Part shown: one piece after another, positions 1 to 17,734 of the stretch
Layout: each line of letters opens with the position of its first letter
Position numbering within the stretch: position 1 is the stretch's first letter
DNA from: a virus
UHGV virus genome: UHGV-1681308
Length of the DNA stretch: 17,734 nt
Direction: 5' to 3' (one strand)
Translations under genes and position numbers: made by a program
Notes under the pieces: model-generated
Database searches by the model: none
What the model was told of the DNA's origin: nothing
What the model saw: the letters and a program-made list of their open reading frames with translations, nothing else

Positions 1-119
1 ATGTTGCAACCGTGGGTCACACGGTAAGAGGCGCGGTGATGGTGCTTGTGACATTTGTCACAAGCACCAAGTGATCCGCGAAGACAATCCGGTGCAACGC
101 CGGATGAGATCATGACAGT
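1..119 (+). mobile_element. tnpB: 3' terminus of a TnpB/IStron-type element truncated by the window edge: last 8 codons of tnpB (MLQPWVTR, stop at 25..27) plus omega-RNA scaffold to the right-end boundary
   Basis: Positions 1..119 align to 10192..10310 (3' end of the intact tnpB at 9133..10218 and its downstream region) at roughly 90% identity. Similarity stops abruptly after 119/10310. A 28-nt hairpin at 41..68 differs in stem sequence from the second copy but keeps its pairing. Confidence 0.7.
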
Positions 120-140
120 ACTATTTAACAGGAGCACACA

Positions 141-617
141 ATGACAGAGCGAGAATTGCGGCTCCGGCTGAGGCGGCTCCTGGGTACGGACAGGGGACTG
201 CCGGTCGAGAAGCTCGCTGCAGAACTGACGACACACAAGGTGGACATATTGCCGTACATGACGTGGTTGTGGAAGACACATGGACAGAAGTTCAGAGTGC
301 TGCTGACAAAGAAAGTGGCAGACTACGCAAAAGCGGCGGAAAAGGAAAAACAGAGCCTTCCGCAGCTGATCGTAAATGCTGGCACAATTTTCTTGCGACT
401 CTCAGAAGGCTCGCTTGAATCCGACAGGACTATCGAGATACTCGGTGACATGTGCGAACCTTATGCACTGTACTTCTTATTTGCAGGCGTAGGATTGCCC
501 TGCGACAAGTACCGCGCAGCAGCCAAGGAATACGCAGCTATGTTTCCTGACGCAGTGCGTGCTCTGCCTGAACCGTATAAGAAACTCGGAGAGGCTATGA
601 CACATGATACCACTTGA
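141..617 (+). CDS. hypothetical protein (158 aa), first gene downstream of the element right end
   Basis: ATG at 141 preceded by AGGAG (131..135). Stop overlaps the start of the next gene. No motif recognised. Confidence 0.6.
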   Translation: MTERELRLRLRRLLGTDRGLPVEKLAAELTTHKVDILPYMTWLWKTHGQKFRVLLTKKVADYAKAAEKEKQSLPQLIVNAGTIFLRLSEGSLESDRTIEILGDMCEPYALYFLFAGVGLPCDKYRAAAKEYAAMFPDAVRALPEPYKKLGEAMTHDTT

Positions 618-3102
618 CAAGCATGACTTGACTATGCTGCATGTGCTCAGCTCAGAGAAACTGATGCTGAAGTCGCTGAAGGCTGCCAAGGCAGGGCAGG
701 AACTGTTTCCACCGAGACGTGTACCGCATCTTGATCTGCTGTGGCGACACTTCATACGTTTCGCCATACAATCCAAGAAAGAAGGGCACTGGCTGCAGTG
801 GGACAGACAGGCGTATGTAGCTGACTGCCTCGAAGAACTGAAGCAGCGTGACGACATCAGCGACGAATGCAAAGCGCGATTCCAGGCAATATGCGTACAG
901 TATATCGGCGCTGAGCCATTGGACGCCGAGGCAGGCGACAAGCTGCTGCTGGAAGCTGTCAACGAAGCTATCAGAGCACAGATCAGCAGAGCCGTGTACA
1001 ATTCCGAGGCTTTCGACGGCATCAGACAACTGGTCAATAAAGGCGTCGCGCTGAAGGAGTCGTTGGAGACAGCTGACGAGAAGCAGAAATTGTTTGTGAA
1101 TCCGCTGCTTGAAGTCGAGACTTACCTGCATGTGTTGCCTAAGATGCCTACAGGTGTTCGCTACTTCGACAGAGTCACCAACGGCGGCATGTCTGAGGGC
1201 GAGGTAGCTTTGATTGCTGGATTGATGGGCGGTGGAAAGTGTCTTGGGAAAGACACACCCGTTCTCATGTACGACGGAACTGTAAAGAAAGTTCAGGATG
1301 TACGTGTAGGTGATCAGCTTATTGGTATGGACTCTACACCAAGAACAGTAATGTCTTTAGGTAGAGGTCGCAGTGAAATGTATAAAGTCACACCAGTAAA
1401 AGGTGATCCATTTACAGTTAACAGGTATCATATTCTGACAATGATATGCAGTGGTCCTGTAATATGGAAAGGAGTCAGATATAAACCAGGTGATCTTATT
1501 GATATCTGCGTTGAGGATCTGTACAGGCAATCCGACAGCTTTAAGTCACTTCTTAAGGTTATCAGAACAGGAGTGAACTTTAAACCTAAGGAGGAGCCTG
1601 AGTTAGATCCTTATTTTGTAGGTTTGTATTTGGGAGATGGAACGAAAGGAAAAGCCCAGATCACAACTGGTGACACAGAAGTTGTCGACTACTGTGTTAA
1701 GTATATGCAAGGTTTAGGTTTTGCATGTAATGTATCCAAAGATACTAGACATAACTGCGTTTATGTCAGTATAAGTAGAGCCAGCAACAAAACCGAAGGT
1801 GCGTTAACTATAATTCGTAGGAATACGTTTATAGATGATGAGAAGCGAATTTTGGATGTGTATAAGACTGGAAGCAGAGAGATTCGCATGAAAATACTTG
1901 CGGGTCTAGTTGACTCTGATGGATACACGCACCATGGTTTCCATGAGATAGTTACGAAGTATAGTAATCTAGCAGATGATATATGCTTCGTAGCGCGATC
2001 ATTAGGGTATGCAGCATATGTTAAAAAGTGTGAGAAAAAATGCTATAATACAGGTGCTGCAGGTACGTACTATAAGGTCAGTATATCTGGAGATTTCTCA
2101 GACTTACCTGTTTTGTTACCTAGACATAAGTTGTCAAAACGTAAGCAAGTCAAATCTGTGCTGAGGACAGGATATACTATAACCAAATTACCCGAGGATG
2201 AGTATTATGGGTTTACCATAGATGGTGATCACAGATTTCTTCTGGGTGACTTTACAATTACACATAACACAGCAACAGCAATCCAACTGGTAGGCAGTCA
2301 ACTGCTTGTAGGCAATCCAGTAGCATGGTTCACATTCGAGCAGCCGTTCGATCAGGACCTGATGCAGCGTATGGTATCCTTCATCACAGGCTACAGCCTG
2401 GACATCATACGTGGACGGGAATTCAAGGATCTGCCCGAGGACATTCGGGCAAAGTTTCTCACATTGAGCAACCAAATGTCGGACAAACTGATAGCAGCAG
2501 ACTTCTCGAACAACAACATGCTTGACAAGAACGATCCCGAGGATGATGGCTCTGTTTACAGTCTGTGCAAACGACTTGACATATGGGCTGACCAAGGCAA
2601 AGTGCCAAGCTACATCATGTTCGACTGGGTAGGCGCGGCAGTGAAACGCCTAGCGGCTGTACGCAGCATAGACATCGGGCAGATCACCAACTACATTGCG
2701 CTTGCCAATGAGATCATCGACGGTCTCGTACAGCTTGCCAAGCAGTACCATACGCGTGTAATCTTCTTTCATCAGCTGGATCCGGCGATCAAGAAGTCGC
2801 CTCCGTCCAGGAAGCCTACGACTGTGGAGCTTCAGATGATGAAGACGATGTCGAACTACACGCAGTACGCAATGGCAATCGGCAAGCGTGACGAAAATCA
2901 GCGCTGTTGGTTCATCTGCGACAAGTGCCGTAACAGCTACCCGTCAGAATGCGTCATCGAGCTGGATGGTGCACACGCCAAGTTCAATCTTCTGGAAGGA
3001 TATGCACCAGGCCGCAACGGACAGTTCATAAATATCAACGAGCTGCAGGAGGAGCTCAACGACAACAGTGACACGGCAGACAGCTACCAGCCTATAATCT
3101 GA
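604..3102 (+). CDS. intein-containing P-loop ATPase, probably a DnaB-like (SF4) replicative helicase; extein about 489 aa plus intein 343 aa
   Basis: Walker A GLMGGGK is followed immediately by Cys, and the extein resumes with T after the intein (reconstituted GLMGGGKT). C-extein has a Walker B-like YIMFDWV and a DnaB H4-like RVIFFHQLD. Extein size and P-loop position fit DnaB; a terminase or other RecA-fold ATPase is not excluded. Confidence 0.7.
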   Translation: MIPLDKHDLTMLHVLSSEKLMLKSLKAAKAGQELFPPRRVPHLDLLWRHFIRFAIQSKKEGHWLQWDRQAYVADCLEELKQRDDISDECKARFQAICVQYIGAEPLDAEAGDKLLLEAVNEAIRAQISRAVYNSEAFDGIRQLVNKGVALKESLETADEKQKLFVNPLLEVETYLHVLPKMPTGVRYFDRVTNGGMSEGEVALIAGLMGGGKCLGKDTPVLMYDGTVKKVQDVRVGDQLIGMDSTPRTVMSLGRGRSEMYKVTPVKGDPFTVNRYHILTMICSGPVIWKGVRYKPGDLIDICVEDLYRQSDSFKSLLKVIRTGVNFKPKEEPELDPYFVGLYLGDGTKGKAQITTGDTEVVDYCVKYMQGLGFACNVSKDTRHNCVYVSISRASNKTEGALTIIRRNTFIDDEKRILDVYKTGSREIRMKILAGLVDSDGYTHHGFHEIVTKYSNLADDICFVARSLGYAAYVKKCEKKCYNTGAAGTYYKVSISGDFSDLPVLLPRHKLSKRKQVKSVLRTGYTITKLPEDEYYGFTIDGDHRFLLGDFTITHNTATAIQLVGSQLLVGNPVAWFTFEQPFDQDLMQRMVSFITGYSLDIIRGREFKDLPEDIRAKFLTLSNQMSDKLIAADFSNNNMLDKNDPEDDGSVYSLCKRLDIWADQGKVPSYIMFDWVGAAVKRLAAVRSIDIGQITNYIALANEIIDGLVQLAKQYHTRVIFFHQLDPAIKKSPPSRKPTTVELQMMKTMSNYTQYAMAIGKRDENQRCWFICDKCRNSYPSECVIELDGAHAKFNLLEGYAPGRNGQFININELQEELNDNSDTADSYQPII
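1240..2268 (+). mobile_element. intein (343 aa) with LAGLIDADG homing-endonuclease domain, inserted in the Walker A P-loop
   Basis: N-terminal splicing block CLGKDTPVLMYDGT begins with Cys at 1240. Two LAGLIDADG motifs: YFVGLYLGDGTKG and KILAGLVDSDGYTHH. C-terminal block GFTIDGDHRFLLGDFTITHN is followed by the +1 nucleophile Thr at 2269. The intein DNA looks visibly AT-richer than the flanking extein. Confidence 0.85.
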
Positions 3103-5383: not shown

Positions 5384-6406
5384 ATGAAAACAAAAAGAGT
5401 ACTGAAGAAAAACGCAATCAAGGCTTACAAAGCCTTCAACAGTGACCTGACTTGCAAAGGCTTCCGGTATGAAGTCGGCAAGGAATACCACCATAAAGGC
5501 AAGCTTGAGCTGTGCGAGGCAGGCTTCCATGCCTGCCCCAAACTGACTGACTGCTTCAATTTTTACCCGTTCGATAAAACTGAAACCAGAGTGGCCGAGG
5601 TGCTCGTCTGGGGTAAAGTCGAGTACGAAGACATAGGTGACAAGCTCTGCGCCTCAAATATCAAGGTAGTCAGAGAACTTACATGGACAGAGGTGTTGTC
5701 TCTGTGTAACAGCGGCTGCCGTAACAGTGGCTACCGTAACAGCGGCTGCCGTAACAGTGGCAACGGTAACAGTGGCAACCGTAACAGTGGCAACCGTAAC
5801 AGTGGCAACCGTAACAGCGGCTACGGTAACAGCGGCGATTGTAACAGTGGCAACTGGAATAGCGGCAACAATAACAGCGGCAATGGTAACATCGGCCACC
5901 GTAACAGCGGCTGCCGTAACAGTGGCAGCTGGAACAGCGGCGACGGTAACAGTGGCTACTTAAATACTCCGGCACAAAAGTATAGCTTTATTTTTAACAA
6001 ACAAGTTGAAAAGTCAGTCTTGGCTCAGATTGAGTTTCCGGAGTTCATGTGCTTCACTTTGTCAAAATGGATACCTGACTTCATAATGTCACAGCAGGAG
6101 AAAAAGCAGCACCCTGAATACGTTACAACAGGCGGTTATCTCAAGAAGTACACATATAAGGAAGCCTTCAGGAAGTCCTTCGAGGAAGCCAGACGCAAAC
6201 CTGACTGGCCCGAACAGCTTGAGAAGCTGAAATCACTGCCTAACTTCGATGCCAAGGTATTCGAGGAGATATCAGGCATCAAATCAAACGCACTTGGAAT
6301 CAGCGCTAAGGAGCTGGCAGACAAGGCAAAGACAGCCATGGAAGTCACAATGGCGGACATAGAGAAGGTATTCGGTTGCAAAATCAAGATTGTAGAGGAG
6401 AAGTGA
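5384..6406 (+). CDS. pentapeptide-repeat protein (N-x-G-x-x type, about 17 pentads) with conserved Cys/His-containing N-terminal domain and conserved C-terminal domain; paralog 1
   Basis: ATG at 5384 with AAGGA at 5371..5375. Central region is NSGCR NSGYR NSGCR NSGNG NSGNR NSGNR NSGNR and so on. N-terminal VLKKNAIKAYKAFNSDLTCKGFRYEVGK...CEAGFHAC and C-terminal KQHPEYVTTGGY...PDWPEQL...LPNFD.KVFEEISGIK are shared with 10835..11797. Confidence 0.8.
   Translation: MKTKRVLKKNAIKAYKAFNSDLTCKGFRYEVGKEYHHKGKLELCEAGFHACPKLTDCFNFYPFDKTETRVAEVLVWGKVEYEDIGDKLCASNIKVVRELTWTEVLSLCNSGCRNSGYRNSGCRNSGNGNSGNRNSGNRNSGNRNSGYGNSGDCNSGNWNSGNNNSGNGNIGHRNSGCRNSGSWNSGDGNSGYLNTPAQKYSFIFNKQVEKSVLAQIEFPEFMCFTLSKWIPDFIMSQQEKKQHPEYVTTGGYLKKYTYKEAFRKSFEEARRKPDWPEQLEKLKSLPNFDAKVFEEISGIKSNALGISAKELADKAKTAMEVTMADIEKVFGCKIKIVEEK
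5706..5957 (+). repeat. about 17 tandem copies of a 15-bp unit (GTAACAGYGGCNNNN) encoding the pentapeptide repeats, including three consecutive identical units
   Basis: Direct reading: cgtaacagtggcaac occurs three times back-to-back around 5765..5815, flanked by near-identical units. The period of 15 nt (5 codons) keeps the frame. Confidence 0.85.
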
Positions 6407-7288: not shown

Positions 7289-8234
7289 CTTAATCAAAAT
7301 CGGACGCAACAACGAACTCAAGAGAGCCACATTGGAGCTGCCTAAATACGGGGAGCTCACGGACGAGCGCGTAGTACAGGAAATGCGCGGCGTATTTGAC
7401 GGATTCGAATACGACCCAGACACTCAGGTCGAGACTGTGTTCAAAACAGTCGAGCAGATCGAGACTTATGCAGCTGAAGTCAGTAAAGAGCTTGAACAGG
7501 CCGACAATGACTTCAAGATGGCAGCAATCACCAATGCCGGTGCCATTGCAGCCAAGCGCTGGCACTTCGGTTTCATGATCAGCAAGTGCCTCAAGGCTTC
7601 CAAGTATGGTGAAGGGGTCGCCAATAAGATTGCAGCCGCAGCCAACATCTCGCTGCCGTATCTTTATCAGTACAGAGCAGTCGGCGACAATCTCAGTATC
7701 AGAGACGCTTACATCCTTGGTATGTATGGCGCTGGCTGGGATTGTATTCGTCAGGTTGCTGCAGTAAATGATCCCGATACAAGACAGAACCTCATTCAGT
7801 ACTTTGTCCAGTCTATCACGGACTGGAACAACAGTGTCGCCAAAGAGCAGGCTAAAGAGGCACTCAAGTCAGCATTGTCCATGCTGAAGCATGGTCCAGC
7901 CGAACTTGATGTTTCCAGTCCGGCAAAGATTGAGACAGCTGTCAACTTTGAATCCGAAGCTCCTGAATTCATGGAAGCAAAGAAACAGCTGCAGAAGCTG
8001 ATGACAGCATGCAGAGGCATTGTCAAAGATAACAAGCTGTCGCCGATGCTGAAGTCCTTTGGCGACTGTTATCTTGCCGATAATGTCCCCGATGCCGAAG
8101 CGCACCTCGATACACTGCACGAAGATGCGACAGCAGCATTGGAGCTTCTGCAGCAGGTTGAGAGTGTGTTGCCGCAGCTCAAGGAAGAAGTCACAAGCTT
8201 GCAGAATATGGGGCTCAGCCATGCAGACAGTTAA
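7281..8234 (+). CDS. hypothetical protein (317 aa)
   Basis: ATG at 7281 with AAAGGA RBS. Protein-like composition, no motif recognised. Confidence 0.6.
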   Translation: MSNLIKIGRNNELKRATLELPKYGELTDERVVQEMRGVFDGFEYDPDTQVETVFKTVEQIETYAAEVSKELEQADNDFKMAAITNAGAIAAKRWHFGFMISKCLKASKYGEGVANKIAAAANISLPYLYQYRAVGDNLSIRDAYILGMYGAGWDCIRQVAAVNDPDTRQNLIQYFVQSITDWNNSVAKEQAKEALKSALSMLKHGPAELDVSSPAKIETAVNFESEAPEFMEAKKQLQKLMTACRGIVKDNKLSPMLKSFGDCYLADNVPDAEAHLDTLHEDATAALELLQQVESVLPQLKEEVTSLQNMGLSHADS

Positions 8235-8460
8235 TCTTGATGTAGATGTGTCGGACCTTATGTGTCCGCACTGCGGTTCTGTCGACAGTGTCAAGTTGAT
8301 CGACCTTGGACCCGAACGAGATGCAGAGGGCGAATACGGTAACGTCAGATGCACCTGCTATGAGTGCGGCTGGTCGACATGTGACATGGATACAGCAGAG
8401 GACGCAGTGTACGCTTTTATCATCGGTCTCGACTGTGATATCAGGCACGACATAATATGA
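8221..8460 (+). CDS. small zinc-ribbon protein (about 79 aa)
   Basis: CPHCG ... CTCYECG four-Cys pattern. The ORF is open from 8059, but that part overlaps the preceding gene, so the start is placed at ATG 8221. Stop overlaps the next start (ATGA). Confidence 0.45.
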   Translation: MQTVNLDVDVSDLMCPHCGSVDSVKLIDLGPERDAEGEYGNVRCTCYECGWSTCDMDTAEDAVYAFIIGLDCDIRHDII

Positions 8461-8657
8461 AACCGATAGGCTACGGGAAGCTCACCAAGTTCCTCAAAGC
8501 CACAGCACCGATATCAAAGCAGTTTGAGAACGAAGTTCTGCGGGATGAGCGTCTCGCAGAACTTTTTTCGTGTGTAGCTGAGGTTGTGCTGCCGAAAGCT
8601 ACAGAACCGCAGAGATGGGCGTTGTGGCAGTGTTTCAAGGGTCTGAAAGGCGTTTAA
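8457..8657 (+). CDS. hypothetical protein (66 aa)
   Basis: ATG at 8457 overlapping the upstream stop. Ends 27 nt before the IStron left end. Confidence 0.45.
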   Translation: MKPIGYGKLTKFLKATAPISKQFENEVLRDERLAELFSCVAEVVLPKATEPQRWALWQCFKGLKGV

Positions 8658-8683
8658 CAACGCCCTTTAACCAGTGATGGCTA

Positions 8684-9110
8684 TCGAACAAGAAAGTGAA
8701 TTGCTAATAGATCCCAAGAGCCTCACGACGCCTGTAACAAGGATCGAAAGAGAAAACAAAGAAGTGAGGATACCGCAAGGCGACAGTAAGCCTAAACGGG
8801 AGTGACAACGGACGTTTAGCAGCCGAGCCATGCGTTCGACAGAACGCCAGCGCATGGAAGGTTCATCGACTATCCCAGATGGGAGTACCCGAGTAGCCAT
8901 GCTGCGACAGCAGCAAAAGTAAGGGGAAGCACTCTGGCTCAGGAATGAGTCAATGATATAGTCAGTGCTTCATGGAAACATGAAGAGTGGTCTCCTATTG
9001 ACACGGAGAAACCTGCTGTTACCCTGGCAAGGTACAGTGAACAGAACCATGGTCTCATTAAATGCAACATTAATTTGACGTTTTGATTTTCTGTATAAGG
9101 ATGTATATTA
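8684..9110 (+). ncRNA. putative group I intron ribozyme core (IStron intron module)
   Basis: R-like element GTTCATCGACTATCC (8861..8875) and S-like element GATATAGTC (8955..8963) can form P7 (GACTA/TAGTC). Several hairpins lie between them and upstream (ctaaacg/cgtttag at 8792..8819, gcgttc-gaca-gaacgc at 8832..8847, gctgc-gaca-gcagc at 8901..8914). No ORF. Not verified by a covariance model. Confidence 0.5.
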
Positions 9111-9132
9111 TCTGTATACAATAAGGAGTGCC

Positions 9133-10218
9133 ATGTACAGAGCCCACAAGATACGCATAGATTGCACAAGAGAGCAGCACAGCCTGTTAATGCAGACTGC
9201 TGGCTGCGCTCGTTATGCGTACAATTGGGGACTCGATAAGTGGGGCAAGATGTACGAAGCCTGGAAGGCTGATGCCTCGCAGGAGAAACCGGACAGATAT
9301 TCTGTAGCCAGACAGTGGACACAGGAGAAACCAGAGTGGGCAAATAAGACATCCAGAAGTCCAGTTGACTACTCTTTTATCAACCTCGGCACCGCCTTCA
9401 AGAACTTCTCAAGGCGCAAAACAAAGTACCCGAAGAAGCACAAGAGGTCACAGGGAATCTCATTCCAAGTGGCACCTGACAAGGCAGCTATAGTTGACAA
9501 CCAACTTAGACTGCCTAACATAGACTACGTGAAGCTCCGAGAGACTCCACGCTTCCAGGGCAAGATAACAGGCTACACAGTTCAGTACATAGCTTCCCAC
9601 TGGTACGTTACAATCGCCTTCGACTGTCCAGACGTCCCAAAAGAAGCACCGGAGTCCGTCGTCGGTATCGACGTAGGACTCCAGCACCCTGCTGTAGCCT
9701 CCGATGGCACCAAACTAGAGCTCCCCATAGAGAAGCTCCAAAAGCTCGAAGTCAAGAAACGTAGAGCACAGCGAGCCCTCAGCAGGAGCAAGAGAAACTC
9801 CAATGCGCGAAAGCGCAAGCGTACCAAACTCCAGCGTATACAACAGAAGATTACCAACATCCGTCAGGATGCAGCCCACAAGTTTACAACTACGGTGAGC
9901 AAAAACCACGCCACTGTAGTCACAGAAGATCTGGACATAAGTGAGCTCCAAAAGAAGGCCCCCGCACGTTCAGTGCGCAGAGCATACAACAGCTCCCTTA
10001 TGGGAACCATTCTTTGGCAGATCTCGTACAAAGCGGTGCACCATATCAAGGCACCAAAGTACTTTCCGAGCACCAAGAGATGCTCAACTTGTGGACATGT
10101 GAAGGAGGCTATGCCTCCGAACGTCAGGACATATCATTGCGACCACTGCGGTACACATCTCGATAGAGATGAGAACGCAGCTCGCAACTTGATGTTGCAA
10201 CCGTGGGTCACACGGTAA
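9133..10218 (+). CDS. tnpB: TnpB (OrfB) RuvC-like RNA-guided nuclease, IS200/IS605 family
   Basis: 361 aa. N-terminus MYRAHKIRIDCTREQHSLL...RYAYNWGL. RuvC-I GIDVGL, RuvC-II VVTEDLD, zinc finger CSTCGH...CDHCG, RuvC-III DRDENAARNL. RBS AAGGAG at 9123..9128. Confidence 0.9.
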   Translation: MYRAHKIRIDCTREQHSLLMQTAGCARYAYNWGLDKWGKMYEAWKADASQEKPDRYSVARQWTQEKPEWANKTSRSPVDYSFINLGTAFKNFSRRKTKYPKKHKRSQGISFQVAPDKAAIVDNQLRLPNIDYVKLRETPRFQGKITGYTVQYIASHWYVTIAFDCPDVPKEAPESVVGIDVGLQHPAVASDGTKLELPIEKLQKLEVKKRRAQRALSRSKRNSNARKRKRTKLQRIQQKITNIRQDAAHKFTTTVSKNHATVVTEDLDISELQKKAPARSVRRAYNSSLMGTILWQISYKAVHHIKAPKYFPSTKRCSTCGHVKEAMPPNVRTYHCDHCGTHLDRDENAARNLMLQPWVTR

Positions 10219-10326
10219 GAGGCGCGGTGATGGTACAGGCAGCATTCGCTGCAGGTACCAGATGATCCGCGAAGACAATCCGGTGTAACGCCGGATGAGA
10301 TCATGACAGTGCGTGTAACACATCGA
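10120..10326 (+). ncRNA. putative TnpB omega RNA (reRNA) scaffold overlapping the tnpB 3' end, plus about 16 nt of flank as guide (gcgtgtaacacatcga)
   Basis: Scaffold conserved with the copy at 1..119, including a hairpin at 10232..10259 with compensatory stem changes and a second conserved hairpin atccggtg-taa-cgccggat. Conservation ends exactly at 10310. The 5' boundary is a guess. Confidence 0.5.
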
Positions 10327-10834
10327 CATATAGTGTCCTGTATCTGCAGAGCAGCAGCAAACCTGCACTACATCCACGAGGGTATCGCACCCTTCTATTG
10401 GGATGGCAACAGGGCAGCTGCTGTGATGAATTGTCTAGGTATAGAACAAGATGTAGCCGCTAAAGGAAAGCGCAGACTGCTAGTGCATTTGATGTGTCTG
10501 CTGGGTGAACCTGCCGGACTGATGTTCAAGGTATCTCTGAGCTGCAACATGCTGGAGTACTTGCTGGGCAAACATTTTGGCGTCTCTTTTCGAAAGTATA
10601 ATGCAGCGGCTGAAGAGATCGCCGGTTGTGTCTTCAAGTGCACAGTAAGTGAGGACACAGCAGGGGCCTATCTAGCGGATTTCAGCGCAACACAAGCTAT
10701 GAAAGACCACAACAGAAAGCTGGCAGAGATGCGCATAAACCCAAGAAAATGTAAAACACCTGCAATGCCATGTGCATCCTGTACTAAAACCAGGGCTCAG
10801 TGCATTTTGGCATGTAAAGTTAAGGACAAACAAA

Positions 10835-11797
10835 ATGAAAACAGAAAAAGTACTGAAGAAAAATGCAATCAAGGCCTATAAAGCCTTCAACAGCGACCTG
10901 ACCTGCAGAGGCTTCCAATATGAAGTCGGTAAGACCTACAGACATATATTCCTAATCCGCTGTTGCGAGTCAGGATTCCATGCTTGTGAAAGGCTGGTTG
11001 ACTGCTTTGGCTACTATGAACCAAACCAAGCAAAAACTCGAATTTGCGAGGTTCTGGTCTGGGGCGATATTCAGAGGCATGATAAAGACACCAAGTTATG
11101 CGCATCCAGAATCCATATTGTCAAAGAGTTGTCCTGGAACAAAGTATGTCGTCTATGCAATAATACCGGCATCGGCAATCAGGGCTTATATAACTCTGGG
11201 AATTATAACAGTGGAAACTCAAATTCCGGTAACTGGAATGCAGGCAATAACAACAAAGGTAAGTACAATTCAGGTGATTGTAACATTGGTTTAGGTAATG
11301 TAGGCACAGGCAATATAGGCAATAATAACTGTGGCCAATATAATTACGGTCATAGGAATTCCGGAAACAATAACATAGGATGCCGCAATGTAGGAAACTA
11401 CAATACGGGCTACTATAATGTCGGTAACTGGAACAAAGGGTCGTTTAATATCGGCTGCTTCAATACAGCAGATGCCATTGTACATATGTTTAACAAGCCT
11501 GTTGTCGGAATCAGTCCATTCGATATTTTAGTCCCAGGTTTCTGCATCTTTGATACGACAGAATGGGTGTCGGCCAGATGTATGACAGATGAAGAAAAGA
11601 AGCAGCACCCTGAGTACGTTACAACAGGAGGATACCAAAAACAATACGCCTACAAGGAAGCCTTCAGGAAGTCCTTCGAGAAGGCAAAGCGACTCCCAGA
11701 TTGGCCCGAACAGCTTAAGAGGCTAAAGGCGCTGCCGAATTTCGATGTAAAGGTATTTGAGGAGATATCAGGTATCAAGGAAGAGGAACTTATGTAA
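10835..11797 (+). CDS. pentapeptide-repeat protein (degenerate N-x-G-x-x repeats), paralog 2 of 5384..6406
   Basis: ATG at 10835 with AAGGA at 10822..10826; the RBS and first ~110 nt are roughly 90% identical to paralog 1. Repeat region GNYNSGNSNSGNWNAGNNNKGKYNSGDCNIGLGNVGTGNIGNNN... The conserved C-terminal domain ends ...FEEISGIKEEELM. Confidence 0.8.
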   Translation: MKTEKVLKKNAIKAYKAFNSDLTCRGFQYEVGKTYRHIFLIRCCESGFHACERLVDCFGYYEPNQAKTRICEVLVWGDIQRHDKDTKLCASRIHIVKELSWNKVCRLCNNTGIGNQGLYNSGNYNSGNSNSGNWNAGNNNKGKYNSGDCNIGLGNVGTGNIGNNNCGQYNYGHRNSGNNNIGCRNVGNYNTGYYNVGNWNKGSFNIGCFNTADAIVHMFNKPVVGISPFDILVPGFCIFDTTEWVSARCMTDEEKKQHPEYVTTGGYQKQYAYKEAFRKSFEKAKRLPDWPEQLKRLKALPNFDVKVFEEISGIKEEELM

Positions 11798-13324: not shown

Positions 13325-14665
13325 ATGAAAAAAGGACTCGGAAACCTGCTGGATGCACTCAGTAAGGCAGACGGCGGCGTCAGTATGTCCATTACAGAAT
13401 TCAAAGAAGCCCAGTACGGCATTCCGCTTAAGCATTACTGTTTGCAGTATCTTTTCGGCAGCACCGGGCTCAGGTACGGCGGCTTTTATCTGCTTGCCGG
13501 TAAGCCGAAGTCGTGCAAATCGCCCTTTGCTTTCTTCCTTGCACATCTCAGCTGCGAGAATGATGGCATTGCATATGTGTACGAACTTGAAGGCAAGGCG
13601 TCACCGACGTTGCTGACCAGCATGTTTGCAGACAGGCCCGAATGGCGAGAGGATGGCGGCCCTTTCAAGCTCATCCGAGGACTGACATTGGACGGCGCCG
13701 AGAAGCACCTTACAAAGTCTGTGCTCAAACTTTTCAAGCAGTACGAGGTTTACGATACTCCGCTGCTGATCGACTGGGACTCCATCTCAGGAGCTGCGAT
13801 GTCAGATGTCGTGTCCAAGATCGAGAAGGAAGGCGTAGCCAGTAAAGGCTACTATGAAAAAGCGCACATCATGAAGCATCTGACAGAGAGCTGGGTCGCA
13901 CTTACCAACAACATGCCTGTCGTGTTCGTCGGCGTCTTGCAGGAAAAGGAAAAGGCTGCAGAGGGATGGGCACCTGCAGGCGGACCGCAGAAGTCGTATG
14001 GCGGTGGCGATTCGCAGTTGTTCAAGGCAGGTACATTACTGTCGTTCTCTCACAGCACGCTGCAGAACGGTGCTGGCAAGCTCGTTCGTATCAAGACTGC
14101 ACTGAACGGATTTGCAGACAGCAGAGGCATTGAAGTAAAGTTTGTCTGGGATCAGTTCGGCGACCTTGAGACCGATTCACAGGGGCACAAGTGGCTTTTC
14201 GCAGAGGCGACGGCAAAGTGCCTCGCACAGCCGAAGATCGTAGGCGAGCTCAGAGACATCATTGATGTGAAGATCAATGATTCCGGCGACAGAGTGACTT
14301 GCAAGACGTTCGGTCTTGACAAGGTTACAGCAACAGAGTTCGAGGAAGCCCTGTTTGCGCCTGAGAACGCCAAGGTACTGGAAGATCTGTACAGATACCA
14401 AAAGATAGAAAAGATCAAGCTGCCCTCAGAGTATGCAGCTTACGCCGAGAAAGCAGGAGACAAGGAAGCCGCATATAAAGAGGCGCAGAAGCAGGCACAG
14501 CTCGAAGAGCGTGAGGCCAAGGCTGCGGAAGCTGCCGCAAAGGAAGCAGCCAAGCAGGCAAAACGAGAGGCGAAAGTCAAGAAGTCAGCTGCGGCATCCA
14601 ATCCGTTAGCGGCTTTAGCAGACATGGCAAAGAAAGCTGAGGCATCAGATGCAAAAGCTGAATAA
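13325..14665 (+). CDS. RecA-family recombinase, UvsX-like, with a Lys/Ala/Glu-rich low-complexity C-terminal tail
   Basis: Variant Walker A LLAGKPKSCKS resembles the T4 UvsX GPSKSFKS type. Walker B-like PLLIDWDS. L2-like GGPQKSYGGGDSQLFKAG. YVYELEGKASPTLLTSMFADRPEW resembles the UvsX segment after Walker A. RBS GAGGAG at 13314..13319. Confidence 0.7.
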   Translation: MKKGLGNLLDALSKADGGVSMSITEFKEAQYGIPLKHYCLQYLFGSTGLRYGGFYLLAGKPKSCKSPFAFFLAHLSCENDGIAYVYELEGKASPTLLTSMFADRPEWREDGGPFKLIRGLTLDGAEKHLTKSVLKLFKQYEVYDTPLLIDWDSISGAAMSDVVSKIEKEGVASKGYYEKAHIMKHLTESWVALTNNMPVVFVGVLQEKEKAAEGWAPAGGPQKSYGGGDSQLFKAGTLLSFSHSTLQNGAGKLVRIKTALNGFADSRGIEVKFVWDQFGDLETDSQGHKWLFAEATAKCLAQPKIVGELRDIIDVKINDSGDRVTCKTFGLDKVTATEFEEALFAPENAKVLEDLYRYQKIEKIKLPSEYAAYAEKAGDKEAAYKEAQKQAQLEEREAKAAEAAAKEAAKQAKREAKVKKSAAASNPLAALADMAKKAEASDAKAE

Positions 14666-16169: not shown

Positions 16170-17734
16170 ATGCTGGAAACAAAAGTCATGTTCAATGCCA
16201 CAGAGCTCACAATCAAAGTGTCTGTGTGGGCACGGGGCGACCCGTTCCCTGCTATTGGGCATGCTGTAGGTATAGACACAGAAACCGAACTTATTACGGA
16301 CGCCGAGCTTACGCCGCCATTGGTTGTACTCGGCGTTTTCAATCCTGCCGACATGACTTGCTACCAGATAGCATGGAGTGATGCACAGTACTTCATGCAG
16401 GAGCTGCTTAAGCGTGACTGCAAGCTGTACTTCGCCAATGCAGGGTTCGACTACTTCGAGCTGGAGAGTGATGAGCTTCGGGATGCGGTCAGCAATGACC
16501 GTCTCGTAGACTTGCTCATCAGAGCTCCGCTTAAAGAGATCGCCACTATAGGGTACATCAGAACGCACAGCCTGAAGGACGCCTGCCAATGGCATCTCAA
16601 TTACGAGATGGACAAACATGAGGACGAAGGCGACCAGGCAGCTCGTGTCACGTTCCGCAGGAACAAAGACATCACAGATGAGCAGCGCATTTACCTGGCA
16701 ATCGACTGCGCGGCTACTTATTACGGGTGCGAGGCGATTGGTCCTCAGGCGACAGAGTGTACACATACACGCGGTCAGATAGTCCTGTATCATATCAGCA
16801 AGAACGGTTTTCCGTACGACCCGTACATGTTCGACTACTGCGAGAAGCTGCTGCAGCAGCATATGGATCAGTATCGTGCAGAGCTCATCACGTACGGGTA
16901 TCCGGATCCGTACAAGAAAGATATGCCCACTGAAATCAAGCAGCTGCAGGACGGCTGGCCTATGTTCAGGGACGCCTGGTTCGCTGCGCATATCAAAGAA
17001 AAGTACCAGTTCGAGGACTCGCTGCCAGGCAAGAGCACAGTAAAGCGCATACTGCTGTACGGCACTGCGTATATGCAGCACGGTACAGATAAAGGCACTC
17101 TGGCGCGGGTGTTCGCAGCATTGCTGCTGCAGGACAAGAACCTGTCCAAAAAGGAACAGGCTGCATATGACCAGCTGGTGGAGGAGCACGACTTCCTGGA
17201 TGCCTGCAATGGTATCGGCAAGAAGGAGGTTTGGCCGACGCTGCTGGTCGCGTGGATGCGTGCCGAGATGGACGGCAAGGACATCGCTGGCATATGGCAG
17301 GCAGTGGACGATGCGGTGCAGGACCATCCGCAATGGTTCTGTACTGAGGAGCCTGTCAAGCCCAAGGCATTCATGCAGGACCACCTGCGGGAACTGCAGG
17401 AAAAGTACCCTGGACTGGAGTTCGACAAGACGCTTAAGTCAGGTGAGCTGAAGTGCTCAAAGAAGGACGCGTGGAAGCTGGCGGATGCGGGGGTGAACGA
17501 TCCGTTGCTGACCGCGTACGTGAACTTTGGTCATGTGCAAAAGTACAAGTCGTCGTTCACGAACAGGGAATACCTCAGGAGCGACGGCAGAGTAAGGTGC
17601 CGCTTTGGCATCGTGGAGAGCGGTCGGTTTGGCCGCTTCACACCGCGAGGTGTGTCGAACAAGAAAGTGAATTGCTGGAACACCTTAACGGGTAACGCCG
17701 AAGGCAATCAGCAGCCGAGCCTTGTATCGAGAGA
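16170..17734 (+). CDS. family-A DNA polymerase, N-terminal part (3'-5' exonuclease domain plus start of polymerase domain); runs off the window and is probably interrupted by an IStron from about 17655
   Basis: Strong RBS TAAGGAGG at 16158..16165. Exo I VGIDTETE, Exo II NAGFDYFEL, Exo III YLAIDCAATYY. The frame stays open to the window end; the track omits it only because it has no stop in the window. From 17655 the DNA matches the IStron 5' end, so sequence beyond about 17654 is probably intron, not exon. Confidence 0.65.
   Translation, partial: MLETKVMFNATELTIKVSVWARGDPFPAIGHAVGIDTETELITDAELTPPLVVLGVFNPADMTCYQIAWSDAQYFMQELLKRDCKLYFANAGFDYFELESDELRDAVSNDRLVDLLIRAPLKEIATIGYIRTHSLKDACQWHLNYEMDKHEDEGDQAARVTFRRNKDITDEQRIYLAIDCAATYYGCEAIGPQATECTHTRGQIVLYHISKNGFPYDPYMFDYCEKLLQQHMDQYRAELITYGYPDPYKKDMPTEIKQLQDGWPMFRDAWFAAHIKEKYQFEDSLPGKSTVKRILLYGTAYMQHGTDKGTLARVFAALLLQDKNLSKKEQAAYDQLVEEHDFLDACNGIGKKEVWPTLLVAWMRAEMDGKDIAGIWQAVDDAVQDHPQWFCTEEPVKPKAFMQDHLRELQEKYPGLEFDKTLKSGELKCSKKDAWKLADAGVNDPLLTAYVNFGHVQKYKSSFTNREYLRSDGRVRCRFGIVESGRFGRFTPRGVSNKKVNCWNTLTGNAEGNQQPSLVSR
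17655..17734 (+). mobile_element. 5' terminus of a second IStron-like element (group I intron module) inside the polymerase gene; truncated by the window edge
   Basis: 17655..17676 is identical (22/22) to the left end at 8684..8705. The downstream block agcagccgagcc and the taacggg segment are shared with 8792..8830. This copy lacks an ~85-nt segment present at 8706..8790. Confidence 0.5.

Follow-up and report, generated by a model that had tools for sequence, protein, structure and literature searches.

The stretches at 1-118 and 10192-10309 of the window, the 17,734-nt DNA analysed here, are likely the right ends of two copies of an IStron that lacks TnpA, in which the RNA at the 3′ end would have two fates. 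The observations behind this reading are a repeat with a characteristic fold, the covariation in that fold, its link to tnpB, a group I intron core, the boundaries of the insertions and the ORFs that they split. Where the omega RNA ends, the intron ends as well, at its predicted 3′ splice site, and the RNA thus probably serves two purposes. The original prediction was an omega-RNA scaffold followed by guides. The scaffold is backed by the fold, the covariation, the covariance model R1 described below and the link to tnpB, but the account was incomplete in that it missed the IStron context and placed the boundary one base too late. As far as can be judged from sequence, the window element would be a phage-borne addition to the known class of IStrons.

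The window is an entire assembled metagenome contig (ENA ERZ773229, NODE_1285) and holds three copies of one IStron, all on the plus strand: the tail of copy A (1-118), a complete copy B of 1657 nt (8653-10309) and the head of copy C (17624-17734), a third IStron that runs off the end of the contig after its 5′ part. Since the window is the whole contig, the contig start cuts copy A, which lacks its 5′ part and retains the last 118 nt of the element. Copy A is placed by an empty site in L002 and copy B by the empty-site alleles of L383, L384 and L385, while copy C is identified from the repeat and from the alignment of the intron 5′ end. The repeat, announced earlier as about 90% identical, is real: 1-119 and 10192-10310 align without gaps at a measured 87% identity. 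The 15 differing positions are 44, 46, 47, 49, 50, 51, 56, 58, 59, 60, 63, 65, 70, 71 and 95, and 12 of the 15 lie in the hairpin at 41-68. Copy A includes the last 27 nt of tnpB, with the stop codon at 25-27, and in copy B the scaffold repeat likewise starts within the last 27 nt of the tnpB frame (stop at 10216-10218).

Similarity between the two copies does stop at 119/10310, where the junction had been placed, but the T shared at this position probably belongs to the flanks, and the element itself ends one base earlier, at G118 and G10309. The empty-site alleles set the junctions between 118 and 119 for copy A and between 10309 and 10310 for copy B, the two boundaries of the latter carrying an uncertainty of 1 nt, since each is followed by a T. 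All 19 related 3′ ends finish in CAG and 17 of them in UGACAG, the exceptions being UGUCAG (L255) and UGAACAG (L008); the base that follows is T, A, G or C. The unoccupied copy A site in L002 reads GGCAAATTGGCG joined to TACTATCTCACAGGAGC, which matches the copy A flank at 14 of 16 positions, and was also read as GGCAAATTGGCG joined to TACTATCTCACAGG. A left junction was found in L006, where the copy A left flank is joined to an intron start. In the window copy B is framed as CTGAAAGGCG, the 1657 nt of the element and TGCGTGTAAC, and the corresponding empty alleles are CTGAAAGATG joined to TGCGTGTAAC (L383) and CTTAAAGGTG joined to TTCGTGTAAC (L384 and L385). Scans of the viral contigs returned chance matches only for the 15-mer TTGAAGCAGGAAGAT and no further copies for GGGTCACACGGTAAGA.

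The insertion of copy B can also be read at the protein level. Homologues of its host ORF were sought with the two flanking ORFs fused as the query, and the intact homologues of 241 aa (P0121, P0122 and P0124) read KGLK(G/D)VRVTHRH through the copy B junction. When 8652 is joined to 10310, the host ORF is whole again and reads exactly the GVRVTHRH of the intact homologues. By this comparison, copy B splits a conserved 241-aa ORF, with exon 1 at 8457-8652 (plus strand, ending in AAAGGCG), as set by the uninterrupted homologues, and exon 2 starting at 10310 (10310-10881, plus strand), as set by the empty alleles. Conversely, the window is itself the empty site for two IStrons of L384, whose sites correspond to window positions 8100 and about 10436. 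These two elements lie at 1015-2644 and 3322-4472 of L384, within 2.4 kb, in a locus that is syntenic with the window and without the copy B insertion; one encodes a TnpB of a clade about 55% identical to the window TnpB, and in the other tnpB is internally deleted. A left end at AAAGG for the L001a and L003 copies was considered and dropped, since the second L384 copy (L384b) puts about 50 nt further upstream inside the element.

Copy C appears to split a DNA polymerase ORF (start at 16170; PHROG 17 DNA polymerase, E = 1.7e-9) after the residues VESG. Its P1 can be drawn as GCGGU(C)/(G)GCCGC, with 17620-17625 paired to 17631-17636, and its P2 at 17640-17655; the 5′ splice site would follow either G17623 or U17624. 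None of the fetched loci contained the DNA polymerase exon expected beyond copy C.

A group I intron core, P1 to P9, was located on the 5′ side of the element, at 8642-8985 on the plus strand, by a permissive search with Rfam RF00028. The match scores 31.9 bits (E = 8.7e-6) over the full model length, which is below the gathering score of 50, and at gathering scores Rfam gave no match anywhere in the window. Relatives whose TnpB is about 84% identical give intron matches of 46.5, 43.2 and 40.2 bits at the homologous position, and those with 64%, 55% and 53% TnpB identity give 52.7 bits (L088, above gathering), 46.3, 42.6 and 26.1 bits. The ends of the element are the exon-intron junctions, as read from empty-site DNA and intact homologues, and an IS-derived ORF B follows the core at 9133-10218. 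These are three features by which an IStron is recognized.

In copy B the last exon bases GGCG (8649-8652) pair with the intron CGCC (8661-8664) to form P1. The same arrangement recurs with different letters: exon ends and intron pair as GGCG:CGCC, GGAG:CUCC, GAGG:CCUC, GGGA:UCCC and GCGG:CCGC, and the last four exon bases among the copies are GGCG, GGAG, GAGG, GGGA, GCGG and AAGG. Such variation sits awkwardly with a protein-read TAM, the short motif next to the target that is required by TnpB, unless the requirement is loose. The empty sites fix GGCG followed by UUUAAC for copy B (intron CGCC) and GAGG followed by CUUAAC for L384a (intron CCUC), and both of these copies, with a terminal G, need a 5′ splice position after G. 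A position after U is needed to keep the reading frame of the L252 dUTPase, whose conserved YRGPVG-V-ILFNAG is obtained only in this way, and of the ORF interrupted by L384b. A single 5′ splice-site rule for all copies was therefore abandoned, since the two kinds of cases conflict. A possible core dinucleotide of the serine-recombinase type was noted as GT at both copy B junctions and GC at both L384a junctions; other copies mismatch. If copy B is spliced, the predicted exon-exon join is GGCG^UGCGUG, that is CUGAAAGGCG^UGCGUGUAAC.

Upstream of the copy A site lies an ORF resembling formate/nitrite transporters (window 119-460; L002 6507-6850), which is open for about 100 codons and overlaps the gene at 141-617 in another frame. 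With one C of the intron start retained, it would stop at a TGA that overlaps the ATG at 141. This ORF gave ambiguous frames at copy A and was excluded as evidence on splice position. A different irregularity was seen in L087 at about 2070-2130, where an intron 5′ end carries a 21-nt direct duplication, AAAGGTCCCCTTGTCGCGTGA, over the P1 and P2 region.

The tnpB gene of copy B (9133-10218, plus strand) encodes 361 aa with the Pfam domains HTH_OrfB_IS605, OrfB_IS605 (72.5 bits) and Cas12f1-like_TNB. The RuvC residues D180, E265 and D346 and the zinc-finger cysteines C317, C320, C336 and C339 show no variation among 17 homologues. Neither the window nor the listed genes of the relatives consulted include a TnpA gene of the Y1 or the serine type. 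This is no bar to membership, because IStrons with ORF B only are on record, as in CsISt1 (PMC4227781). Against isolated phages, blastn gave no match and tblastn gave TnpB relatives at 33% identity or less only, and the representative bacterial and archaeal genomes held no TnpB above 36% identity to that of the window. One related contig comes from a human gut metagenome.

Both 118-nt stretches fold into three stem-loops. In copy A, the minimum free energy fold places SL1 at 10-14/20-24 with the loop GGUCA at 15-19, SL2 with an outer stem at 32-36/76-80 and an apical hairpin at 40-52/57-69, and SL3 at 87-94/98-105; UGAC at 113-116 is the pseudoknot partner and G118 is the terminal base. In copy B (scaffold and intron 3′ end at 10192-10309, from folds, covariation and the covariance-model match), the counterparts are SL1 at 10201-10205/10211-10215, SL2 with outer stem 10223-10227/10267-10271 and apical hairpin 10231-10243/10248-10260, SL3 at 10278-10285/10289-10296 and the pseudoknot GUCA 10207-10210 with UGAC 10304-10307, before the terminal G10309. 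All are on the plus strand. The pseudoknot joins the SL1 loop to the UGAC just before the element 3′ end. The hairpin picked out earlier is the apical helix of SL2, and its shapes were correctly described: the folds agree with a 12-bp stem and loop AUUU in copy A (13 bp counting U40-A69) and with a 5+5 bp stem and loop AUUC in copy B, where the stem is interrupted by a tandem A.G/G.A internal loop. The proposal to fold both copies also held up, with z = -5.3 for A and -4.6 for B and none of 200 shuffles as good, and the plus-strand fold is the more stable.

The same three stem-loops appear when 17 of 17 distinct 3′ ends, from elements with TnpB 42-100% identical, are folded singly. The common plan is an SL1 of 5 bp with loop GGUCA inside the tnpB frame, an SL2 in which an internal loop separates an outer stem of 4-5 bp from an apical hairpin of variable form, and an SL3 hairpin that also varies and shrinks to a 4-5-bp mini-hairpin in L091 and L008. 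The scaffold tail ends in AUCAUGACAG, and the copy B RNA in AUGACAG. An Rfam search (E ≤ 10) found no family match across 10192-10309.

It had been claimed that most stem positions differ between the two copies while pairing is kept. This goes too far: half of the 12 pairs are the same in both, and of the six that differ four stay paired (44-65 from G-C in A to A-U in B, 49-60 from U-A to C-G, 50-59 from G-C to A-U and 51-58 from A-U to G-C), but 46-63 and 47-62 are lost in copy B. The comparison of two copies is weak evidence by itself, because three adjacent pairs switch together and few events are involved. The suspected selection on RNA structure finds its real support in the wider family, where the alignment of homologues has compensatory changes widespread across relatives with TnpB 42-100% identical.

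Four alignments were used. A MAFFT alignment across both subfamilies (A3) misaligned SL2 and SL3 and was used for the SL1 and pseudoknot columns only; SL2 was tested on A4, A6 and the model-based A7, and SL3 is in register only in A4, so that across the wider family SL3 rests on single-sequence folds. In A3 (n = 16), 100% of the cells are paired, with changes on both sides in 4/5 pairs of SL1 and 1/4 of the pseudoknot. The close family with the full fold (A4, n = 10) has 96.7% of cells paired, 27 of them G.U, and 4/36 pairs changed on both sides; the hairpin triplet UGA/UCA changes to CAG/CUG as a block in 4 of the 10 sequences, which may represent one or two exchange events and not many independent substitutions. 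Among the distant members (A6, n = 8), 100% of the cells are paired, 16/21 pairs are changed on both sides and all seven SL2 apical pairs covary; 0/500 shuffles reach any of the five measures, and slid controls are 25-40% paired. In A7 (n = 33) the figures are 96% of cells and 16/17 pairs, counts that lean towards the model structure because this alignment was fitted to it. The pseudoknot GUCA:UGAC is paired in 16/16 sequences, with a compensatory GACA:UGUC in L255, and at distant loci it covaries to GCUA:UAGC (L009) and to GAAU:AUUC or GAAC:GUUC (L052, L079 and L056).

These counts bear directly on the weakest of the other explanations, that the repeat is inert, the tail of a decayed insertion sequence that recombination has copied, its palindrome having arisen by chance; truncated and internally deleted copies exist (L002, L004a and L384b) and copies do recombine with each other (L006), but 96-100% pairing across TnpB identities of about 30-100%, with nearly every pair compensated, and an intact tnpB with invariant catalytic residues make it hardly credible.

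The covariance model R1 was built from eight distant members only, with the window sequences excluded, and it recovers copy A at 40.3 bits and copy B at 36.9 bits. Among 155 loci with TnpB about 27-37% identical, about 60 have an R1 match immediately 3′ of tnpB, in every case on the same strand as the gene. A group I intron match (E ≤ 0.01) was found in 1 of the 18 best-scoring R1 loci checked, one of the 17 intron-negative loci containing only about 50 nt upstream of tnpB. Since these distant tnpB loci carry the fold and 17 of the 18 checked have no intron match, the fold goes with TnpB and not with the intron. Taken with the foregoing, the 3′ end has a structured RNA with compensatory changes that runs over and past the tnpB 3′ end, a pseudoknot from the nexus to the 3′ end, and a fold tied to tnpB rather than to other parts of the element, all of which characterize an omega RNA.

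Alternatively, the stem-loops could be a peripheral 3′ domain of the intron, of the P9.x type, which positions the 3′ splice site and has no guide role, TnpB being a passenger. The stretch is indeed the intron 3′ end with a terminal G, and splicing of the C. botulinum IStron needs the last stem-loop and about 20 nt (10.1101/2023.11.20.567912). The R1 loci speak against it, however, with the fold directly 3′ of many distant tnpB genes and 17 of the 18 best checked loci without an intron match, as does the location of SL1 inside the tnpB reading frame. A pseudoknot from loop to 3′ end is a feature described for TnpB and Cas12 guide RNAs, and L091 and L008 retain SL1, SL2 and the pseudoknot although their SL3 is a mini-hairpin. 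We consider this explanation unlikely. Even less probable is that the hairpins are single-stranded DNA signals at the transposon end for a tyrosine (HUH) transposase of the IS200/IS605 type, the covariation preserving DNA hairpins. Right ends of IS200/IS605 do carry subterminal hairpins that coincide with omega-RNA stems (10.1101/2023.11.20.567912), and the terminus ACAG resembles the TCAG of group A IStrons (PMC13565253). Nevertheless, the gene lists of the relatives looked up have no TnpA, the insertion sites are G-rich (GGCG, GGAG and GAGG) and not TTGAT-like, the long-range pseudoknot covaries, and the plus strand is the more stable, with many G.U pairs that would be A.C mismatches on the other strand.

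If the 3′ end is an omega RNA, as we favor, the guide would be the flank that follows it. As predicted, the 16 nt past the junction differ between copies A and B. In copy A the flank at 119-134 (plus strand), TACTATTTAACAGGAG, is the presumed guide or 3′ exon, as placed by the L002 allele, and it does contain GGAG at 131-134, ahead of the ATG at 141, where the guide had been said to overlap a ribosome-binding site. In copy B the flank at 10310-10325 (plus strand), TGCGTGTAACACATCG, would be the guide and also begins exon 2, as placed by the empty alleles, in which its equivalents are TGCGTGTAACACATAG (15/16, L383) and TTCGTGTAACACATAG (14/16, L384 and L385), after GATG or GGTG. Altogether the unoccupied targets in related phages match the flanks at 14/16, 15/16 and 14/16 positions, directly after GGCG, GATG or GGTG. 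The sequences past the junctions are ordinary flanking DNA, different for each insertion, and the presence of near-identical unoccupied targets is what a role in homing or retention would need.

We infer that the IStron of the window is transcribed and spliced, that TnpB binds its RNA and uses the guide, and that the element homes, and the steps can be proposed as follows. The element would be transcribed together with the interrupted gene, and the 3′-terminal 110 nt or so would have alternative fates. In one, the 3′ RNA folds into SL1, SL2 and SL3 with the pseudoknot, TnpB binds it, and the following 16 nt or so serve as guide; the complex would then cut unoccupied copies of the same site, for instance those of a related phage that infects the same cell or sites from which the element has been lost, and repair from the occupied allele would copy the element back in. 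In the other, the intron core would take the terminal G as the 3′ splice site and join the exons, which would restore the host ORF and sever the scaffold from the guide. UGAC sits two bases before the terminal G, and because it overlaps the bases beside the splice site the two fates should be mutually exclusive. The apical helix of SL2 would be free to vary in sequence as long as pairing is kept. To our knowledge, IStrons are the only known elements in which one and the same RNA must either act as a guide RNA or be spliced out as an intron. For the C. botulinum IStron, the bases for 3′ splice-site choice are overlapped by the downstream partner of the pseudoknot, the omega-RNA fold and TnpB each repress splicing, and the exclusion was shown experimentally (10.1101/2023.11.20.567912).

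Of the known systems, the window element appears closest to the group B (IS607-type) IStrons, by its G-rich targets and the exon-final G:C pair. Group B includes BcISt1 and CbISt/CboIStron (Clostridium botulinum, phage c-st) (PMC4227781; 10.1101/2023.11.20.567912), and in it the 5′ exon ends in a G that is paired with C (PMC4227781; PMC13565253). The omega RNA of CboIStron has three stem-loops, a pseudoknot from nexus to 3′ end and an overlap with the 3′ splice site, and the stem-loops and nexus pseudoknot are described for IS605/IS607 omega RNAs as well (10.1101/2023.11.20.567912). The window element has the same order of group I core, tnpB and omega RNA ending at the 3′ splice site, the same insertion after G-rich motifs with the exon-final G paired to an intron C, and the same scaffold of three stem-loops, the first of which forms a pseudoknot through its loop with the 3′ end beside the splice site; group B members are often without TnpA and also occur in phage genomes, as here. 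A GG-containing insertion motif with an exon-final G paired to C was found; the CGG terminus with matching GG core dinucleotides at both junctions was not, as 19 of 19 ends are CAG. Thus the window element ends in GACAG, unlike the CGG of group B, and its TnpB is only about 31% identical to that of the c-st copy. Furthermore, each copy here has its own exon-binding guide sequence and its own last four exon bases, in contrast to the fixed TGGG of group B, the listed genes of its relatives include no serine recombinase, and in some relatives splicing seems to occur after U.

Group A (IS200/IS605-type) IStrons such as CdISt1 of Clostridioides difficile also combine an intron, tnpB and a 3′ omega RNA, their terminus TCAG resembles the ACAG of the window, and copies without an intact TnpA are common. 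However, group A inserts after TTGAT-like pentanucleotides with a 5′ exon that ends in U, whereas copy B follows GGCG. With the intron-less IS605/IS607 TnpB elements of the ISDra2 type the window element shares a scaffold that overlaps the tnpB 3′ end and a pseudoknot of the nexus loop, and many distant tnpB genes of such elements have an R1 match at their 3′ end. In these elements, and presumably here, the sequence immediately beyond the right end acts as the guide; they differ from the window element in having no intron, so that a gene that they enter is not mended in its RNA.

Phage group I introns such as T4 td and those of Twort carry protein homing endonucleases and spread by cutting intron-less alleles in co-infection. 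The window element resembles them in having an intron of the self-splicing type, as predicted here, in phage replication genes (DNA polymerase and dUTPase), but its nuclease would be RNA-guided and retargeted automatically by the flank that follows. It is conceivable, though we hold this only tentatively, that the elements form a phage-restricted lineage of transposase-less IStrons in which TnpB and the omega RNA act as the homing endonuclease of a group I intron. Such a lineage would spread between co-infecting phages without a DNA transposase. Because the guide is whatever flank follows and the exon-binding sequence is, as we propose, re-tuned in each copy, many sites in phage replication genes could be colonized.

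The known picture of how IStrons work is unchanged by the window element. What the lineage offers is a natural and well-sampled series, with TnpB identities of 42-100% and several insertion sites with matching empty alleles, in which covariation can reveal the pseudoknot, the bases at the splice site and the exon-binding sequence. Its location in DNA polymerase and dUTPase genes would make RNA-guided homing in co-infection directly testable, and it supplies compact sets of TnpB, omega RNA and target for assays.

Several further arrangements were observed among the copies. At 9500-11200 of L006 the copy A left flank leads into an IStron that is followed by the copy B right flank, which implies that the approximately 8.5 kb between the window copies is missing from L006 and fits recombination between IStron copies. 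Three copies share one flank, TAAGGAGTGCTGGAACGTTTTATGCAG (L004 3287, L094 491 and L002 4178); the L004a and L002 copies are truncated at the 5′ end and the L094 copy is cut by its contig end. The right-end junctions of the L004, L094 and L002 copies lie 0, 19 and 21 nt into TAAGGAGTGCTGGAACGTTTTATGCAG, a spacing of about one guide length. These offsets could reflect independent insertions or deletions beside the right end, and losses of 19 and 21 nt could be scars of self-directed cutting.

The window carries other features. The 832-aa ORF at 604-3102 is a DnaB-like helicase/ATPase (PHROG) with a LAGLIDADG homing-endonuclease intein (Pfam Hom_end_hint, Hom_end and LAGLIDADG_3), another selfish element in the replication module. 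A UvsX-like recombinase (PHROG 97), of the function type that repair-mediated homing would need, is encoded at 13325-14665. Extended arrays of a 15-nt tandem repeat at 5676-6005 and 11198-11433 lie inside the paralogous ORFs 5384-6406 and 10835-11797, which have DUF7666 with a weak Pentapeptide_2 match and share blocks of 77-86% identity at both ends.
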